A stretch of 64,000 bases of DNA, from the NCBI GenBank assembly GCA_002010065.2, contig MTMD02000002.1, forward strand, positions 64,001 through 128,000, read 5' to 3'. Positions 17,177 to 25,672 of this stretch are shown one piece after another (positions within the stretch are counted from its first letter, which is position 1; each line of letters opens with the position of its first letter). The position numbers were made by a program, and so were the translations under genes. This DNA comes from Candidatus Pyrohabitans jungbluthii (lineage in GTDB: Archaea > Hydrothermarchaeota > Hydrothermarchaeia > Hydrothermarchaeales > BMS3B). The notes under the pieces are model-generated. The model saw only the letters and a list, made by a program, of their open reading frames with translations. It had not been told where the DNA came from and made no database searches.

Positions 17177-17248
17177 AGCCGAGGGAGGGAATTGAACCCC
17201 CGAAAAGCGGATCTGCAGTCCGCCACGTTACCACTCCGTCACCTCGGC
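17177..17248 (-). tRNA. tRNA-Cys (GCA), intronless, CCA not encoded
   Basis: GCCGAGG/CCTCGGC acceptor stem, GCGGA-ctGCAga-TCCGC anticodon arm, GGTTCAATTCC T-loop, U discriminator. Confidence 0.95.
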
Positions 17249-17294
17249 GCTAAGAATAATGCCAAAAAATAACAACCTCAATCTATAGAAGCAG

Positions 17295-17945
17295 CTAAAG
17301 CTCACAACTCTCTTTTGTGCAGGTGCCTGTAGCTTTGCCTGTTTCAGCTGGGGAATCGCCAAGAGCCTTTACCAGATCCTCATAGGTCTGGAGCCCGCTG
17401 AGCAGTTTACCATTGATAATAAAAGTGGGAACGGCATAAACTCCATAAGACTCTGCCAGTTTTAGATTCTCTTCGAATCTCTCTCTGGCAGTGTTTTTGA
17501 GGAAAGCATCTATCTCACTCTTGGATATTCCAAGCTCCCTCAGGTAGCCGTAAAGTCTTGCCCTATCGCTTATATCGATCCCCCTAACCCAGTAGTCCCG
17601 GTATACTCTGTCGTTAAACTCTTTGAATACTCCCCTATCCTTTGCAAGCTCCGTAAGAAGAAGGGCAAGATGTGAGTTGCTGAACCTCTCGGGGATGTTT
17701 ATTTCCACACCGAGCTGAAGTGCACGTTTTTTTATCTCACCCACAATAACATCTATATAATCCTCATCAAAACCCATCTCCAGAAGCGTCATGCCTCCTT
17801 CTGGTATTTCCGGATGAATCTCGTATCCTATCCACTCTAGCTGAACGTCATGATTCTCCACCAGCTTGTCCAGCGCCTTTTTGCTCAGATAGCAGAATGG
17901 GCAGGAGTAATCTGAAAAAACGATGACTTTGTTCATGTATTTCAC
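17295..17945 (-). CDS. DsbA/FrnE family dithiol oxidoreductase
   Basis: SDYSCPFCY, GVYAVPTFIIN..GLQ, C-terminal CxxxxC. Confidence 0.88.
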   Translation of the reverse strand: MKYMNKVIVFSDYSCPFCYLSKKALDKLVENHDVQLEWIGYEIHPEIPEGGMTLLEMGFDEDYIDVIVGEIKKRALQLGVEINIPERFSNSHLALLLTELAKDRGVFKEFNDRVYRDYWVRGIDISDRARLYGYLRELGISKSEIDAFLKNTARERFEENLKLAESYGVYAVPTFIINGKLLSGLQTYEDLVKALGDSPAETGKATGTCTKESCEL

Positions 17946-17970
17946 CCGCGGTATGGCATCACCTAACGAG

Positions 17971-18219
17971 CTAACTTTTCTCTCTGATCTTAATTAGATA
18001 GATAAATTTCCCGTCCTCTTCACTCATATCTAAGAGCTCATTTCCAGTATGCTTAACCCACGCTGGAATGTCTTTTCTGGTGCCCAAATCAGTGGCTATG
18101 ACCTTTAGAACCTTCCCTGCTTCCATTTTGGATAATGCCTGTTTGACTCTAAAAATTGGCATGGGGCAAGCCATGCCAGAAACATCCAGCACCTCATCAG
18201 CTTCTATCAAGCCTCTCAC
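17971..18219 (-). CDS. tusA: TusA family sulfur carrier
   Basis: LDVSGMACPMP, VIATD.G...DIPAW..TGNELL. Confidence 0.92.
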   Translation of the reverse strand: MRGLIEADEVLDVSGMACPMPIFRVKQALSKMEAGKVLKVIATDLGTRKDIPAWVKHTGNELLDMSEEDGKFIYLIKIREKS

Positions 18220-18221
18220 CC

Positions 18222-18638
18222 TCAGAACGTAAGGACGACGTCTGCCTTCTGAGCCTTTTCCAGGAGGAACCAGGTTGCTCCGACGATGTCCTCAGCCTCA
18301 GGCACAAGGTTCTCCTTGGTAACGTCAAAAATCTGCGCAGCAAGGCTGCACACGTACATCCTTACCTTCCCTGTAGCCTTCAGCGCCTTGATAATCTCGT
18401 ACACGTCTGTGGGAAGCCCAGCCTCAGCCACCTTAGCCTTTATCATCTCATCGCTGCCTTCATGCTCCTTTGAGACCTTCAGATTCTCTGCACCACCTTT
18501 TGTCAGTACTCTGGCAGCCCAGTTTACGAACAGTATGTCAACCTCCATGTCAGAGGCGGCCCCGAGGTAGGCGAAAGCCAGAGGGGTCAAAATTCTATCG
18601 TATGCATCTTCCCTTACAATTATTGCCAGTCTCTTCAT
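18222..18638 (-). CDS. DsrE/DsrE2-like (peroxiredoxin-family) sulfur relay protein
   Basis: KRLAII, MEVDILF..W, VRMYVCS, IVGATWFLL..ADVVLTF. Confidence 0.8.
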   Translation of the reverse strand: MKRLAIIVREDAYDRILTPLAFAYLGAASDMEVDILFVNWAARVLTKGGAENLKVSKEHEGSDEMIKAKVAEAGLPTDVYEIIKALKATGKVRMYVCSLAAQIFDVTKENLVPEAEDIVGATWFLLEKAQKADVVLTF

Positions 18639-18654
18639 ATCTTTTCCTCCTATC

Positions 18655-18670
18655 GAACGAACGTTCGTTC
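18655..18670. promoter_or_regulatory. Perfect 16-bp palindrome, probable TetR operator
   Basis: GAACGAACGTTCGTTC immediately upstream of the dsrE-like RBS and downstream of the TetR gene. Confidence 0.75.
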
Positions 18671-18707
18671 TATTGTAGAATAATAACCTGTGAAAAACAA
18701 CTTGAAA

Positions 18708-19286
18708 CTACCTTCTCAGCGCCCTCCAGCAGGAATCAAGAGTCTCATCCACATAATTTAAAAGGCTGTCCCGAATAACACCGTCCAGCTTTAGGGTTAT
18801 CAGCCTGATTGGAAGCCCCATTAAAGTTGCAGTTGCCAGCAGGGGGTCCATTTCCCTGATTTCCCCCTTTACAATGGCATCCGATACTATTTCCATGATA
18901 TAGTCAAATGGTTTAGAGGAACAGATAGTGCGGTTGTCCCTCAGGATTTCTCTGTGCTTTACATACAGGGCATACTCCATAATATCTGGGTACTCATCGG
19001 TAAGCCTGTAGAATACTTCAATAATCCTCCTGAATTTCTCTTTAACATCTTTTTCATCGCCGAGTGCCTCTTTCAGGTTTTTCATGAGAAACTGTACTGT
19101 ATCGTTGTAGAGGTACTCCGCAATATCTTCTTTTCCGTCAAAGTAGTGATATATCGCCCCTATGCTTAGCCCAGCCTCCCGCGAGATGTCCCGAATGGAG
19201 GTGTTAAAATACCCCTTTCTTGTGAAAAGTCTCCGGGCAGTTTTAATGATTTTACCTTTTGTTTCTGTGTCCATCTGAGACCTCAT
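18708..19286 (-). CDS. TetR/AcrR family transcriptional regulator
   Basis: IIKTARRLF..KGY.NTSIRDI...AGLSIGAIYHYF.GKE HTH. Confidence 0.93.
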   Translation of the reverse strand: MRSQMDTETKGKIIKTARRLFTRKGYFNTSIRDISREAGLSIGAIYHYFDGKEDIAEYLYNDTVQFLMKNLKEALGDEKDVKEKFRRIIEVFYRLTDEYPDIMEYALYVKHREILRDNRTICSSKPFDYIMEIVSDAIVKGEIREMDPLLATATLMGLPIRLITLKLDGVIRDSLLNYVDETLDSCWRALRR

Positions 19287-19364
19287 TTGTCTTACACCAG
19301 GTGGAGGTGCGAAATAATAACTTCTTCTAAAGGTTTGAGCAATTAAGAATAAAAATATTATGCG

Positions 19365-20264
19365 CTAGTCAATCATCCCGCCGGCACGCATCGCTCGCCG
19401 TGCTTTCTCAGCTATCTCCTCAGGCACGCGAACCTCTGGTGCGAGGTCTTCAAGGCACCACAACACCTTGGCGGCGTCGGTCAGCTTGTGGTTGCTGCAG
19501 CTTGCGCGCTCACTGGGGAAGTAGAATCGCTTTTCAGGAAACTCCCTCTCAAGGCGGTGCTTCATTCCTATCTCAGTGGCGACGATGAACTCCTCGCTGG
19601 GCGAGGCTCTGATGTGCTCCACCATTTGCTGTGTGTCAAGCACGTGGTCCGCGAGCGCAATCACGTCGCCCCTGCACTGAGGATGGACGAGCACCTCTGC
19701 ATTAGCGTGAGCCTCCTTAAGCCTTGAGACCTCACTGGCGAGAATACGCACATGGGGCGGACAGTACCCTTCAGCGATGATTAAATCTTTGCCGCTGGTG
19801 TTGCGGAGATAGCTCCCCACGTACTGGTCGGGCAGGAATATCGCCTTTTCGTTGAGTTCTGAGAGCACGCGAAGCGCTTTGCTGTGGTTGCATATGTAGT
19901 CGCACGCAGCATACTGCTCTGCCCTGGCTTTAATGTAGCCAACAACCTTCGCCTCGGGTGAGCGTTCTTTAATGCCCGCGATCTGCTCCACGCTCACCAT
20001 AGCCACCATGGGGCAGCGCGCCTCAGCGCTGGGAATGAGCACCTTCTTGTCAGGATTTAAAATCGCAATAAGCTCCGCCATGAAATCAATGCCGCACGCC
20101 ACAACCACGCTTGCATTGCTCTTCTGGGCAAAAAGGGCACATTCGAATTTATTCCCCACGAAGTCCGCTAAGTCCTGCACATCACCGGGTTGAAAATTGT
20201 GCGCCACTATTATGGCGTTGTGCTCCTCCTTGAGCTTCTCAATCCTGCGCTCAAGCTTAGCTAT
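19365..20264 (-). CDS. Divergent quinolinate synthase (NadA)-fold Fe-S protein, probable ATA start
   Basis: NAIIVAHNFQ, CGIDFMAE, three cluster Cys (ARCPM, YCPPH, SCSNH), HPQC, ATE.GM; frame extends upstream of the tracked GTG to an ATA overlapping the preceding stop. Confidence 0.8.
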   Translation of the reverse strand: MAKLERRIEKLKEEHNAIIVAHNFQPGDVQDLADFVGNKFECALFAQKSNASVVVACGIDFMAELIAILNPDKKVLIPSAEARCPMVAMVSVEQIAGIKERSPEAKVVGYIKARAEQYAACDYICNHSKALRVLSELNEKAIFLPDQYVGSYLRNTSGKDLIIAEGYCPPHVRILASEVSRLKEAHANAEVLVHPQCRGDVIALADHVLDTQQMVEHIRASPSEEFIVATEIGMKHRLEREFPEKRFYFPSERASCSNHKLTDAAKVLWCLEDLAPEVRVPEEIAEKARRAMRAGGMID

Positions 20265-20634
20265 ACTCCTGCCCCCTGTAGTTGGCGATCGCCTTCTTCA
20301 GAGCGCGCACGCCAACTTCCTTGCAGCACCTGTTTATCTCAGGTAAGCCCCCCGCGGCGCGCTCTATATCGGCTAAGCCAAGCTCAGCCGCCTCCTTCAC
20401 GCTCTTACCCTCTGCCAGGCTTGCCAGTATTTCGCTGCTTGCTATGGCGGCGGCGCAGTTGTACGCCTGGAAGCGCGCCTCCTTTATCACGTCACCCTCA
20501 ACTTTGATGTAAAACTCCACCTCGTCGTCGCAGAGGGGGTGTACTTCTTTGCCCACGCCGCTGGCATCGCTCAGCATGCCCTCATGCCTAGCCTCGCGAA
20601 GTATTCGAGCGACCTCTTCACCCCTCAGAGGCAT
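20257..20634 (-). CDS. Divergent IscU/NifU-like scaffold paralog
   Basis: PLCDD, FQAYNCAAAIASSE, GGLPEINRCC. Confidence 0.85.
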   Translation of the reverse strand: MPLRGEEVARILREARHEGMLSDASGVGKEVHPLCDDEVEFYIKVEGDVIKEARFQAYNCAAAIASSEILASLAEGKSVKEAAELGLADIERAAGGLPEINRCCKEVGVRALKKAIANYRGQEYS

Positions 20635-21025
20635 CTCCCTTCCCCGCTTTTTTCTTCTTGTAGTCCTCGATTGCTGCCTTCAAGCCATCGCTGGCGAGAA
20701 GCGAGCAGTGCATCTTTATCGGCGGGAGCCCGCCAACCGCGTCGGCGACATCCTCTTTGCTTATCTTCGCCGCCTCCTCCAGGGTTTTGCCCTTGGCAAG
20801 CTCCGTCACCATGCTACTCGTGCCTATTGCTGCGGCACAGCCAAAGGTCTCAAACTTTATGTCCTCGATTATCTCCTCGCCCTTTTCGTTCTTCCCGACT
20901 TTAATGTAGATGTACATCACGTCCCCGCACGCGGGGTTTCCCACCTTGCCCACGCCGTCGGGGTTCTCCATCCTCCCCATATTCCTGGGGTTTCTAAAGT
21001 GGTCTATCAAGGTTTTGCTATACAT
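20618..21025 (-). CDS. iscU: Fe-S cluster scaffold IscU/NifU
   Basis: YS...DHFRNPRNMG, GNPACGD, FETFGCAAAI, LPPIKMHC. Confidence 0.95.
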   Translation of the reverse strand: MYSKTLIDHFRNPRNMGRMENPDGVGKVGNPACGDVMYIYIKVGKNEKGEEIIEDIKFETFGCAAAIGTSSMVTELAKGKTLEEAAKISKEDVADAVGGLPPIKMHCSLLASDGLKAAIEDYKKKKAGKGDASEG

Positions 21026-22229
21026 GGCAGTGCTCGCCTCCTTTCCATTCTGTTCCCTCTACGTAATCCTCAAAGCTGTCCTTAAATGGCGATATATCGC
21101 GCAGGCGCTTAACCACGCGGGGCAGGACTTCAAGCAGGCGCTGCACATCTTCGCGGGTGGAAAACCTGCCAAGCGTGACGCGAAGCGAACCATGCGCCTC
21201 GGCGTGGCTCAGCCCTATCGCCGTTAAAACATGGCTCGGCTCAAGCGTTGGCGAGGAGCACGCGCTGCCTGTGCTCGCGCTTATGCCCTCGAAGTCCAGC
21301 TCCAGTATCAACCCCTCGCCCTCTATGAATGCAAAGGCGAAGTTCGCGTTGCCGGGGAGGCGCTGCTTGGGATGCCCGTTTAAGCGGGTGCGCGGTATCT
21401 TCAGCACCTCCTTAATAAGCTCGTCTCGAAGTTTTGTCAGGCGCTCCGTTTCGTCCTTCATCTCTTTCTTCGCTATCTCCGCTGCCTTGCCAAAGCCAAC
21501 TATGCCGGGGACGTTCTCAGTGCCGGAGCGCAGCTTTCTCTCCTGCCCGCCTCCATGAAACAGGGGCTCAAGTCTTGTGCCCCTAGCTACGAAGAGGGCG
21601 CCTATGCCCTTGGGACCATACATCTTGTGTGCACTCATGGCGAGCATGTCCACGCCAAGCTCTTCAACGTCTATCGCCACCTGACCGTTGCTTATGCACG
21701 CGTCGCTGAAGAAGGCAACGCCCTTATCCTGCGCCACCTCCGCAAGCTCCTTTATGGGCTCTATTGTACCTATCTCGTTGTTTGCGTGGTTGATTATGGC
21801 TAAGATGGTATCGCTGTTAATTGCATCCTCCAGCGTCTCGGGCTTAACGAGACCATATTCGTCCACATCTAGGTAAGAAACCTCAAACCCCTGCTTCTCG
21901 AGCCAACGGCACGCCTCAAGCACAGCAAAGTGCTCTATCTTGGAAACAACTATATGCTTTCCCTTGTTCTTATTCTTCAGCGCAAACCCCTTTATGGCAA
22001 GGTTGCACGCCTCTGTGCCGCCAGAGGTGAAGATTATCTCCTCGGGCGAGGCGTTTATCAGCTCAGCAACCTTAGCTCGAGCCTCCTCTACGGCTGCCTT
22101 TGCCTCCTGCCCAAATGAGTAAAAGCTGGTTGGGTTGCCGTACTTCTCAGTGAAGTAGGGCAGCATCGCCTCAACCACGCGTTCGTCCACCGGCGTAGTC
22201 GAGGCGTAGTCGAGGTACACTCTCCTCAT
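21018..22229 (-). CDS. iscS: Cysteine desulfurase IscS/NifS
   Basis: YLDYASTTP, FTSGGTE, SAHKMYGPKG (PLP Lys), STGSACSS (catalytic Cys). Confidence 0.95.
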   Translation of the reverse strand: MRRVYLDYASTTPVDERVVEAMLPYFTEKYGNPTSFYSFGQEAKAAVEEARAKVAELINASPEEIIFTSGGTEACNLAIKGFALKNKNKGKHIVVSKIEHFAVLEACRWLEKQGFEVSYLDVDEYGLVKPETLEDAINSDTILAIINHANNEIGTIEPIKELAEVAQDKGVAFFSDACISNGQVAIDVEELGVDMLAMSAHKMYGPKGIGALFVARGTRLEPLFHGGGQERKLRSGTENVPGIVGFGKAAEIAKKEMKDETERLTKLRDELIKEVLKIPRTRLNGHPKQRLPGNANFAFAFIEGEGLILELDFEGISASTGSACSSPTLEPSHVLTAIGLSHAEAHGSLRVTLGRFSTREDVQRLLEVLPRVVKRLRDISPFKDSFEDYVEGTEWKGGEHCHV

Positions 22230-22230
22230 C

Positions 22231-22461
22231 TTAAACTTTCCTCCTTATGTACGCTTTTATTATCCCGCCTTCTCGCGCATAGCCAAGATACTCGTTCCCG
22301 GTTACACGGCACCAGGCAGGGAGGTCTTCAATTATATCTTCGTCGTCTGCAACTATCTCCAGAACTTCCCCGACGGCAAGCTTTTGCAAAGCTTCGCCAG
22401 CCTTTGCGAGAGGCACAGGGCAGTGCATACCCACGCAGTCCACGCTGAGCTTTGCCTTCAT
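22231..22461 (-). CDS. tusA: TusA family sulfur carrier (second copy)
   Basis: DCVGMHCPVP, IVADD...DLPAWC..TGNE. Confidence 0.9.
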   Translation of the reverse strand: MKAKLSVDCVGMHCPVPLAKAGEALQKLAVGEVLEIVADDEDIIEDLPAWCRVTGNEYLGYAREGGIIKAYIRRKV

Positions 22462-23594
22462 CTCTCCCGCAACCTGTTTATAACCTCCCCCGCCTCCTGC
22501 GCAACCCGCGCTACGTCTGCCTCGCTCGTGGGGATGCCGAAGGAGAAGAGCATGGCACCGCGGATTAGCTCCTGGGATAAGCCCATCGCCGCAAGCACGT
22601 GGCTCGCCTTCGCTGCTCGAGCCATGCAGGGCGAACCCGAGGTTATGTATATTCCTCGTGAGCTGAGCTCAGCCACGACAGCCTCGCCCTCTACCCCAGG
22701 GACGCTAATGTGCACATACATGGGGTTAACTTCGCTCGGGTGCCCGTTTATCTTGGCTTCGGGCACCTCACGGCGCAGCGCCTCTATAAACTTGCTCCTC
22801 AGCGTGCGCAGCTTCTCTAGGCGCTGCGACATCTCCCTCTCAGCCAGCTCTGCTGCCTTTCCCATGCCCACTATTCCTGCGACGTTTTCGGTGCCCGCTC
22901 TGTAACCGCGCTCTTGTATGCCGCCCTCTATCTGGGGCAGAAGCCTTACTCCACGAGCTAAATAAAGCGCTCCCACACCCTTAGGGCCATAGAAGCGGTG
23001 CGCCGAAAGGGTGTAGATATCTACGCCCAGCTCTTCCACCTTAGCGGGCACTATGCCAGCGGCGCTGACGCCGTCGCAGTGAAATGTTATCCCCCGCTCC
23101 TCGGCGATTTCGGCAATCTCCTTAATCGGCTGGAGGGTGCCCACCTCGTGGTTGGCGTGCTGCACAGAGATTAAAATCGTGTCGTCGCGAATCGCCTTCT
23201 CAAGCTCCTCCACGTTAACGCGGCCGTGCTCGTCAACGCCCACGCGGGTAACCTGCACCCCCTCGCGGGCTAAGCTCTGGAGCGGATGCATTATGGAGTA
23301 GTGCTCCACCGCAGAGATAACCACATGCCTCCCCCTCGCCTTATTAGCCTGAATCACGCCTTTAATCGCTAAGTTGTTTGCCTCCGCCCCGCCGGAGGTG
23401 AAGACTATCTCCTCGCTCCTCGCCCCCAAAAGCTGGGCTACCTTCTCCCTTGCCCCCTCCACAGCGCGCCTCGCTTTGAGCGCAAAGTCGTGCAGATTGG
23501 AGGGGTTCGCGTAGAGCTCGTCGAAGTACGGAAGCATCTCCTGCTTTACCTCTTGCAGCACAGGAGTAGAAGAGGCGTAGTCTGCGTAAATCAT
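22458..23594 (-). CDS. IscS/NifS-like paralog with PLP-binding Lys replaced by Arg
   Basis: YADYASSTP, FTSGGAE, SAHRFYGPKG (CGC codon), TSGSPC; ATG at 23594 after GAGGAG. Confidence 0.88.
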   Translation of the reverse strand: MIYADYASSTPVLQEVKQEMLPYFDELYANPSNLHDFALKARRAVEGAREKVAQLLGARSEEIVFTSGGAEANNLAIKGVIQANKARGRHVVISAVEHYSIMHPLQSLAREGVQVTRVGVDEHGRVNVEELEKAIRDDTILISVQHANHEVGTLQPIKEIAEIAEERGITFHCDGVSAAGIVPAKVEELGVDIYTLSAHRFYGPKGVGALYLARGVRLLPQIEGGIQERGYRAGTENVAGIVGMGKAAELAEREMSQRLEKLRTLRSKFIEALRREVPEAKINGHPSEVNPMYVHISVPGVEGEAVVAELSSRGIYITSGSPCMARAAKASHVLAAMGLSQELIRGAMLFSFGIPTSEADVARVAQEAGEVINRLRER

Positions 23595-23677
23595 TCTCCT
23601 CGCCTGAATAACGCTGCTCCTTCCCATCGCAAAATTGTTTGGAAAGGTTTAAGCAGCTTTAGTCAACATTCTGGTGC

Positions 23678-24526: not shown

Positions 24527-25672
24527 ATGGAGATAATCACCACCTTCCCCCGCGGTCTGCGCTACGCGTGCACACTCGAGAGCTGCTTCACCTGCTGCTC
24601 CCTCTTCGAGGACATCCCGGTTACCATCGAGGAGATAAAGCGGGTGAAGGCGCTGGGGTATAAGGATTTTTACGAGGCACGGAGCGGGCGATACTTCATA
24701 AAGAAGCCCTGCACCTTCCTTGAAGACAAGCTGTGCTCTCTTCACAGGGAGCACGGCAAAGCCAAGAAGTTCATGACCTGCCGCAAGTATCCTTTCTCGG
24801 CGAGCGTGCTTGACAACGGGAGCGTAATCGTCGACGTGAAGTGGACATGCCCTGGCGTGGGGTTTGAGGGTGGAGAGGAGATAACCGAGGCGCTGCTTAG
24901 AGAAGAGTTTCTGGAAGACCTTCTCAAAGGCGGAGCAGAGGAGATAAAGCGAGGCGAGGTGGTTTACCTGCACAGCCCGAGCGGGCAGCGCATCCCGTGG
25001 GGAGCGCTTGTGAAGCTTCACTCAGGCATAGCCGAAGCCCTTGCTGGGGAGGGATTCTACGATACCCTGCTTTTGCTCACCGCTGCGGTGCGCCACCTGG
25101 GCAGCAACCTGGGTGGGAAGAGCTTTGTCTCCGAAAGCGACGCTGCCTCAGCCCTGGAAAGCTTCGAGGCGCGGTATCGCCAGGAGAGGGAGGCGTTGCT
25201 CCGCGAAGTAAAGGCGCAGGCACAGGTGGCGGTGGATATCCTTACAATATACGACTATTTTGATGAACTCTTTGAGTACGAGATTAACCCTGGCTACGCG
25301 GCGAAGAAACTGGGTATAGCAGAGGAGCTGGAGTTCGACGAGGACTTCGCCCGGCTCTTCTCCAAGCCTATATCCGCTGAAGCTCAGCGCTTGCTTGCCA
25401 TGCACACCAGGCAGAGCTTCATGGAGACTTTAGCAAGACCTTGGGATTTGCCCTCAGCCTACTTCTGGACCCTGGGCGTGGCCTGCGTCGCCGACTACTT
25501 AGCAAGGCTGCTTTCAAGCGATGAGGTTACCCGCGACGACGCGCGAAAGGCGCTCAGCATAGTGGACTTCCTCAACAAGCACTTCCGCTCCTTCCGCGAT
25601 TACTACTTCCCCCGCTACCCGGAGCTGGGAATGCAGTACCTGCAATTCCTGCTGGGTGGGGTGCTTGAATAG
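24527..25672 (+). CDS. YkgJ/CxxCC cysteine-cluster protein with helical C-terminal domain (FliB-like)
   Basis: C..SCFTCC, PCTFL..LCSLH...G..KFMTCRKYPF, WTCPG. Confidence 0.75.
   Translation: MEIITTFPRGLRYACTLESCFTCCSLFEDIPVTIEEIKRVKALGYKDFYEARSGRYFIKKPCTFLEDKLCSLHREHGKAKKFMTCRKYPFSASVLDNGSVIVDVKWTCPGVGFEGGEEITEALLREEFLEDLLKGGAEEIKRGEVVYLHSPSGQRIPWGALVKLHSGIAEALAGEGFYDTLLLLTAAVRHLGSNLGGKSFVSESDAASALESFEARYRQEREALLREVKAQAQVAVDILTIYDYFDELFEYEINPGYAAKKLGIAEELEFDEDFARLFSKPISAEAQRLLAMHTRQSFMETLARPWDLPSAYFWTLGVACVADYLARLLSSDEVTRDDARKALSIVDFLNKHFRSFRDYYFPRYPELGMQYLQFLLGGVLE

Follow-up and report, generated by a model that had tools for sequence, protein, structure and literature searches.

Does a run of ten co-oriented genes for sulfur and iron-sulfur (Fe-S) proteins in Candidatus Pyrohabitans jungbluthii, followed by a tRNA-Cys gene, encode one dedicated pathway, or is it built around ordinary Fe-S cluster assembly? 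The run occupies positions 17177..23594 on the minus strand of the window, by which we mean the whole 64,000-nucleotide stretch that was analysed, and an earlier note had read it as a single undescribed system in which the canonical IscS and IscU each have an altered partner (marked here, like the altered NadA, by an asterisk). With better than even confidence, the whole is best explained by a six-gene core that is a minimal Fe-S assembly (MIS) operon enlarged by accessory parts of different origin. The operon combines a vertically inherited IscS-IscU pair with a Lys-less IscS and its TusA, an altered IscU and a rewired NadA, and most of these parts are of known types. Throughout, the genomes compared carry G-numbers (G000 is the genome under study), loci L-numbers and proteins P-numbers.

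The core is a housekeeping Fe-S assembly operon with accessory genes

The ten open reading frames (ORFs) were assigned to the families Aminotran_5/NifS (two), TusA (two), NifU_N (two), NadA, TetR, DsrE and DSBA and, together with the tRNA-Cys gene, are all present on the minus strand, roughly where the earlier note had placed them. The six core genes, in order of transcription, are as follows.

22458..23594, minus strand: IscS*, a Lys-less cysteine desulfurase homologue of 378 aa (another possible start, an ATG, lies at 23627)
22231..22461, minus strand: TusA1, a sulfur carrier of 76 aa with a CP motif
21018..22229, minus strand: IscS/MisS, 403 aa, with K202, C324 and R350 intact
20618..21025, minus strand: IscU/MisU scaffold, 135 aa, with N-terminal Tyr, three Cys, Asp, His and an LPPIK motif
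20257..20634, minus strand: IscU*, a second scaffold-like protein of 125 aa
19365..20264, minus strand: NadA*, a NadA-fold protein of 299 aa with a probable ATA start

The proposal that these genes overlap or abut was borne out by the measured junctions: iscS* and tusA1 overlap by 4 nt, tusA1 and iscS are 1 nt apart, iscS and iscU overlap by 8 nt, iscU and iscU* by 17 nt, and iscU* and nadA* by 8 nt, given a NadA* start at the ATA at 20264.

A profile search gave no match to the SufB family in the genome, which is 99.95% complete in 15 contigs; the family was matched in 1 of 38 class genomes, and the positive control was detected in 14 of 14. By tblastn, the genome holds only two IscU homologues, both in this operon. 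Because SufB is unmatched and both IscU homologues lie here, IscS-IscU is the organism's housekeeping MIS and not a side pathway, and the contention that the locus serves something other than housekeeping assembly had to be dropped. IscS scores 539 against a cut-off of 531 for TIGR03402 and clusters with the Lys-containing IscS from the order to which it belongs, with a support of 97 in the Shimodaira-Hasegawa-like approximate likelihood ratio test (SH-aLRT; the IscS and NadA trees are quick IQ-TREE runs supported by this test only). The pair has the make-up of a MIS, a class I desulfurase with the pyridoxal phosphate (PLP) Lys and loop Cys adjoining a single-domain IscU with three Cys, Asp and His, and the step in which IscS would draw sulfur from cysteine and hand it to IscU is strongly supported. 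Genes for HscAB, IscA, Fdx and IscR are absent from the ten genes, the only part of the genome searched for them. The C-terminus of IscS (window 21018-21040, minus strand) bears a short His/Cys tail, EHCHV, which is of HHH type in relatives and may be a metal-binding extension.

In order to place the core among its relatives, the gene order that the earlier note had proposed for comparison, IscS*-TusA-IscS-IscU-IscU*-NadA*, was followed across the 11 genomes of the family. It is complete in six (G000, G002, G004, G006, G008 and G010, although it spans two contig ends in G002 and NadA* is cut by a contig end in G010) and consistent but interrupted by contig ends in two (G001, G003), while the first TusA is absent from the three genomes of the sister genus, G005, G007 and G009. 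IscS* has an orthologue in 11 of 11 genomes; within the sister genus it is still in place in G005 and lies on another contig in G007 and G009. Pairwise within-genus ratios of nonsynonymous to synonymous substitution rates (dN/dS, Nei-Gojobori) were 0.10-0.14 for IscS*, 0.10-0.28 for IscU* and 0.08-0.12 for NadA*, hence 0.08-0.28 for the starred genes, and 0.05-0.18 for TusA1, compared with IscS at 0.05-0.10, IscU at 0.02-0.07 and canonical NadA at 0.03-0.05. Values in genus g3 were 0.18-0.30 for the starred genes and about 0.2 for IscS. The starred genes are therefore under purifying selection, somewhat looser than that on their canonical partners, and the relaxation to neutrality that would have undermined them was not seen.

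IscS* belongs to the Lys-less IscS proteins, which are linked to TusA

The substitution of Lys by Arg noticed earlier in the IscS partner is present: R200 stands at the position of the PLP Lys, L349 at that of the substrate Arg, H149 replaces Asn and S177 replaces Gln, at positions whose roles we presume to be those of E. coli IscS. The loop Cys (C323), H98 and D174 are retained. IscS* is missing both the Schiff-base Lys and the substrate Arg of an active desulfurase, and its combination of lost Lys, lost Arg and kept loop Cys is that of the Archaeoglobus fulgidus IscS (AfIscS) type. From these residues we strongly infer that IscS* is incapable of processing cysteine and is probably an inactive desulfurase. 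The novelty earlier attached to a Lys-less IscS is not upheld, as one paper already describes A. fulgidus IscS as having no desulfurase activity and lending a Cys ligand to the IscU cluster, and M. acetivorans IscS1 as likewise lacking the Lys (PMC7585200).

Among the 120 best matches of IscS*, 119 are without the Lys and 101 carry Gln. All 30 Lys-containing Chloroflexota sequences keep the substrate Arg, whereas the Lys-less sequences that cover the site lose the Arg and keep the Cys. The quick tree places IscS* in a 21-row clade (SH-aLRT 99) with K->Q and K->T proteins of Chloroflexota and Bacillota and with the third IscS of the genome, outside the K->D clade of Archaeoglobus type and so in a separate lineage. 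Because it clusters with these K->Q/T proteins and not with the neighbouring IscS, IscS* is not a local duplicate. The third IscS (G000, C8:42885-44253; K->T, Arg lost, Cys kept) lies directly behind a TusA gene with an RMCPMH-type motif, an arrangement that the family conserves and that families f11 and f12 share, with IscU added; these two families also carry further, highly diverged IscS on a long branch (L182, L309; K->L, H->Q).

In counts that come from related genomes, which overstates their independence, and in which some flanks are short, TusA lies within 1.5 kb of 23 of the 27 Lys-less IscS loci of the class and of 8 of the 25 Lys-containing loci, all eight of them this operon. Likewise, in the class of G043 (Chloroflexota; Dehalococcoidia by inferred name; 301 genomes), TusA was found at 25 of 30 Lys-less loci and at 0 of 30 Lys-containing loci (the best 30 of 39 and the best 30 of 35, respectively), often in the order IscS-IscU-DsrE-TusA; two genomes of that class have NadA and a Lys-containing IscS added upstream. 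The link recurs in a second Lys-less clade (K->D, closest to PDB 4EB5), with TusA in 6 of 6 loci. The presence of TusA beside Lys-less IscS genes in two clades suggests a cysteine-independent entry of sulfur. IscS* would most likely take persulfide from TusA, or might, like the Archaeoglobus protein, offer its Cys as a ligand to the cluster, and the operon would then possess a second, cysteine-independent sulfur input.

The genome encodes SepRS and SepCysS and has two CysRS matches over the cut-off and two tRNA-Cys genes (G000 coordinates of the cysteine-related genes: C10:30664-32049, C2:401098-402303, C2:238135-239667, C10:47477-48625 and C2:595134-595207). Because SepRS and SepCysS are present and no CysK/M match over the cut-off was found in the genome, a sulfur route that spares free cysteine is plausible. 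Families f8 and f9 (L192, L193, L198, L301, L302, L304) have the order TusA-IscS(K->D)-IscU, and in G017, G018, G025, G026 and G034 the sole IscS match is of that K->D type and SufB is absent, which makes these genomes natural test cases for cysteine-independent assembly. With an intact IscS next to a Lys-less one in a nearly SufB-free lineage, the operon makes the sulfur source of Lys-less IscS-IscU pairs testable with five small proteins.

IscU* and a possible IscS:IscS* heteromer

IscU* keeps C35, D37, C60 and C104 and with them the three Cys and the Asp of a scaffold. Gone are the N-terminal Tyr, the Lys of the LPPVK motif and the His before the last Cys, the latter being replaced by C103, in agreement with the RCC ending (C103-C104) reported before. 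PMC13066941 assigns the Tyr, Lys and His to IscS contact, dimer coupling and ligation. IscU* is thus unlikely to dock on IscS as IscU does, and its four Cys would suit a cluster-holding partner or a carrier downstream of IscU. Seven of the 20 matches returned by an IscU* search were IscU*. A similarly altered second IscU, minus the extra Cys, stands behind IscU in G013, G019 and G027, none of which has NadA*.

The tight gene coupling and the pairing of paralogues could also reflect a heteromeric machine, as the earlier note had considered. In an obligate form of it, IscU and IscU* would sit on either face of an IscS:IscS* heterodimer, which would join two [2Fe-2S] into a [4Fe-4S] cluster. An ESMFold2 model of IscS*:IscS scored 0.95 against 0.01 for the best control, with a contact agreement between runs of at least 95% and a partner pLDDT (predicted local distance difference test) of at least 92. 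The pass mark was reached by 51 of 78 solved pairs and 2 of 108 mismatched pairs, and the method cannot tell which family member binds; because the two proteins are 46% identical and IscS homodimers are already solved, the pass shows likeness to such homodimers only. Moreover, families f8, f9 and f11 and the class of G043 have a Lys-less IscS without a Lys-containing neighbour, IscS* has no link to the operon in G009, and IscU* is without the very Tyr that contacts IscS. An obligate heteromer is, on this evidence, unlikely.

NadA* is a distinct NadA-fold clade with a changed pocket

The predicted fold of NadA* is that of NadA (pLDDT 95; template modelling (TM) scores of 0.91-0.95), and its active site is changed, as the earlier note had said. 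The three cluster Cys are kept (C84, C168 and C256, against C83, C170 and C256 in P. horikoshii NadA), as are H21, Y109, H173, H196 and T213, while the changes are Y23F, D37N, S38K, N111K, T125N, S126H, E198Q, S212D and M259H; the catalytic roles of these residues are presumed by us. Y23, D37, S38, N111, S126, E198 and M259 are invariant in 110 of 110 ordinary NadA matches (the 120 matches listed minus nine clade members and P0026), and all seven are replaced in NadA*, which has the fold and cluster Cys of NadA but not the pocket of a quinolinate synthase. In the 16-row NadA* clade, which extends down to 37% identity, K111 is present in 16, F23 in 15 and Q198 in 12 rows, and D37 and S38 are kept in none. 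Two of the changes match engineered PDB variants, since 6ORA carries the Gln and entry titles name Y21F; we take these variants to be inactive. The clade has an SH-aLRT of 99 in the quick tree, apart from the canonical NadA of the class (97) and among loosely resolved bacterial NadA, and the simplest reading would be an acquired, then rewired copy. Atlas and Foldseek returned only NadA as clear matches, including all 30 Atlas matches. An intact canonical NadA lies elsewhere in the genome (C2:486446-487372) with NadC and an aspartate-dehydrogenase-like gene, both neighbours named by eye. The replaced residues argue strongly that NadA* is not a quinolinate synthase; its pocket has probably been rebuilt for a different reaction, making the clade a candidate new enzyme subfamily.

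No standard start codon fits NadA*, and the reading frame offers an in-frame ATA (window 20262-20264, minus strand) behind a G-rich stretch. The 6 loci from genera g1 and g3 all have ATA at this position, where the 3 loci from genus g2 all have ATG. The GTG at 20207 chosen by the ORF caller would remove the N-terminal strand, and P0002 is cut to 280 aa. Translation probably begins at the conserved ATA.

NadA* could instead be a second quinolinate synthase that has diverged, or a xenolog in slow decay that travels with iscSU, with starred genes that have no joint function. It passes the NF006878 NadA cut-off (322 against 294), all of its Atlas matches are NadA and the residues from H21 to T213 named above are kept; nadA-iscS-iscU neighbourhoods are common, and the dN/dS of NadA* rises to 0.24-0.30 in genus g3. 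The seven otherwise invariant residues are nevertheless all replaced, N111K is fixed throughout the clade down to its most distant members, no internal stop occurs in any NadA* match examined and dN/dS stays well below 1, so that redundancy or decay is improbable.

Outside the NadA* clade, P0026 and P0247, NadA homologues near Chloroflexota sequences, have the same N->K and E->Q changes, possibly through convergence or tree error. A P0026 query against 401 genomes of the class of G043 gave 26 matches, of which 12 loci were read, all ordinary NadA. G025 has a very divergent NadA-like ORF (L043:6429-7499; 27% identity, altered pocket) beside an aldehyde-oxidoreductase-like gene, which likewise does not belong to the clade.

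Distribution and possible functions of NadA*

NadA* was found in 9 of the 11 family genomes (the other two are cut ahead of nadA*) and in G011, G022 and G029; a few unplaced proteins are NadA* too. It stands behind a plain IscS-IscU in G011, and in G022, G029 and the metagenome locus L177 it lies in divergent orientation near dsrA-dsrB (family f5). Some genomes of families f4 and f5 have a second divergent dsrAB pair (L144:4671-6883, L177, L201-L203), with nitric-oxide-reductase-like, cytochrome c and DUF166 genes as neighbours (names partly read by eye). A scan of genome contigs kept 80 loci, two with the NadA* signature and both from its own family. The metagenome pattern scan gave 52 stretches: 22 contained a NadA-like sequence (eight with the signature or in the clade, 13 ordinary, one fragment too short to classify) and 30 had no NadA match.

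The earlier note had also suggested a dedicated pathway, in which the starred genes deliver sulfur or a special cluster to NadA* as the endpoint enzyme. IscS*, IscU* and NadA* do co-occur throughout family f1, iscU* overlaps nadA* if the probable ATA start is correct, and B. subtilis NifS serves NadA directly, according to PMC13066941. However, IscU*-like tandem proteins occur without NadA* in G013, G019 and G027, and NadA* occurs without IscS* or IscU*, behind the plain pair of G011 and near dsrAB in G022 and G029, which have one IscS match each. Position alone does not make NadA* the target either, because ordinary NadA is often near iscSU, both in the genome scan and in PMC7585200. As the operon is moreover the only scaffold system found in the genome, a dedicated NadA* pathway appears quite improbable.

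We favour, if tentatively, a NadA* that is a [4Fe-4S] protein of non-quinolinate function with a link to the supply of sulfur or clusters, and that may bind its cluster with an open iron next to the new invariant Lys. That it is an enzyme of sulfur supply whose substrate is a small anion bearing sulfur or phosphate comes close to an even chance; a cluster carrier or store is a doubtful prospect, and unrelated chemistry as a client of the operon and a residual quinolinate synthase activity are each unlikely. A fuller picture, speculative but possible, is that NadA* is the first of a NadA-fold [4Fe-4S] family in sulfur chemistry, whose open iron and Lys bind or generate sulfide or persulfide (or carry out an elimination on an anionic substrate such as thiosulfate, S-sulfocysteine or phosphoserine) and feed TusA-IscS*. 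If NadA* does carry out sulfur chemistry, the operon would encode a machine that assembles Fe-S clusters from two inputs in archaea that lack SufB. In the searchable literature, which leaves out most subscription papers, we found no published description of the gene combination or of the NadA* clade and no paper on a NadA-fold protein with a non-quinolinate job, and because of the latter the conserved, rewired clade is a compact target for new [4Fe-4S] chemistry. Databases name NadA* 'quinolinate synthase' and IscS* 'cysteine desulfurase', labels to be treated with caution.

Several observations, besides the relatedness of the genomes behind the TusA counts, weigh against this account. In the supposedly active IscS, Ile takes the place of the usual PLP Gln, and the activity of this protein is a prediction from sequence. 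One close IscS* relative, P0133, has the Lys back, all three genomes of the sister genus have an IscS* (K->H) with no adjoining TusA, and the IscS* of G009 sits outside the operon. NadA* evolves two to four times faster than canonical NadA and, among the sites checked, only K111, P170, H21 and the three Cys are invariant; given this fast rate and these few invariant sites, a relaxed, non-catalytic role also fits. Finally, a fixed link between NadA* and dsrAB was rejected, the same dsrAB type being present without NadA* in G013, G014 and G028.

The TetR-DsrE-TusA-DsbA tail is a putative exchangeable cassette

Downstream of nadA*, the genes are separated by gaps of 78, 69, 2 and 25 nt and then by 46 nt ahead of the tRNA gene.

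18708..19286, minus strand: TetR-family regulator, which opens the swapped cassette
18655..18670, no strand: perfect 16-bp palindrome 5' of dsrE, a probable (putative) TetR operator
18222..18638, minus strand: DsrE/DsrE2-like sulfur carrier, 138 aa
17971..18219, minus strand: TusA2, a sulfur carrier of 82 aa
17295..17945, minus strand: DsbA/FrnE-like thioredoxin-fold protein with a CPFC motif
17177..17248, minus strand: tRNA-Cys(GCA), second genome copy

Between G000 and G009, a member of another genus, nucleotide identity stays at 57-64% through iscU* and the greater part of nadA*; at the end of nadA* it jumps from 59% to 92-96%, the level that holds from about position 19430 downward. The tail is present in G000, G005, G007 and G009 and absent at this site from G002, G004, G006 and G008; G004, of the same genus, has a different gene between nadA* and the tRNA, and the other three have unrelated genes. 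The palindrome is a single genomic site at up to two mismatches and recurs in the same or nearly the same form in five sister-genus loci. Because of the identity jump, the absence from four relatives and the conserved palindrome, the tail appears to be a separately regulated, horizontally swapped and exchangeable cassette. The claim that all eleven elements form one system accordingly fails: they are co-oriented, but the tail is not conserved with the six-gene core and has a putative operator of its own. The regions some 30-50 nt ahead of tetR, dsrE and the tRNA gene have an AT-rich motif in common and account for three of its four occurrences in the window, the motif having been chosen after seeing them. 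DsrE and TusA proteins are persulfide relays, and this cassette may feed the same sulfur relay as the core, albeit as an exchangeable part.

The tRNA-Cys gene also follows iscS-iscU-iscU* in G019 and G027, which belong to another family. Outside the family, 6 of 14 Lys-containing IscS loci have SepCysS or tRNA-Cys nearby, against 0 of 9 Lys-less loci, in stretches of unequal length. The extra tRNA-Cys gene may have stood beside iscSU from an earlier date, with a possible connection to the tRNA-dependent supply of cysteine. On the other side of the core, a 381-aa CxxCxxCC (YkgJ/FliB-like) protein (window 24527-25672, plus strand) is encoded divergently from iscS* in genera g1 and g3, and G012 and G022 have shorter CxxCxxCC genes in the vicinity of iscSU-SepCysS-MoeB.

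Comparison with known systems

The IscS-IscU pair and an operon without chaperones or carriers are shared with MIS (MisS-MisU) and with iscSU of M. acetivorans, whose iscSU2 is clustered with genes of NAD biosynthesis, as described in PMC13066941 and PMC7585200. Relative to MIS, the present operon adds a Lys-less IscS*, TusA, a second altered IscU and a rewired NadA, and SufB is missing here, whereas methanogens are described as carrying SufBC in the work cited for MIS (PMC13066941/PMC7585200).

IscS* resembles A. fulgidus IscS (PDB 4EB5, 4EB7 and 4HVK; K-restored 4R5F) and M. acetivorans IscS1 in the missing PLP Lys, the Leu at the substrate-Arg site and the kept loop Cys. It differs from AfIscS in having Arg and not Asp at the Lys site, in retaining the preceding His, in its SPC loop, in belonging to another Lys-less clade and in sharing its operon with an intact IscS. 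To NadA of P. horikoshii (5KTM/6ORA) and T. maritima (4P3X), NadA* is about 40% identical and alike in fold, cluster Cys and the other kept residues, and is set apart by the pocket changes listed above. The B. subtilis NifS-NadA pair (PMC13066941) similarly ties a desulfurase gene to a NadA-fold protein, but there NifS is active and NadA is a true NadA, whereas the NadA here is rewired and linked to an operon that provides the general scaffold system. Lastly, the DsrE2-like and TusA proteins have the conserved Cys of known DsrE/TusA relays and differ from these in lying under a putative TetR operator next to an Fe-S operon; the class of G043 has DsrE-TusA directly behind Lys-less IscS-IscU.

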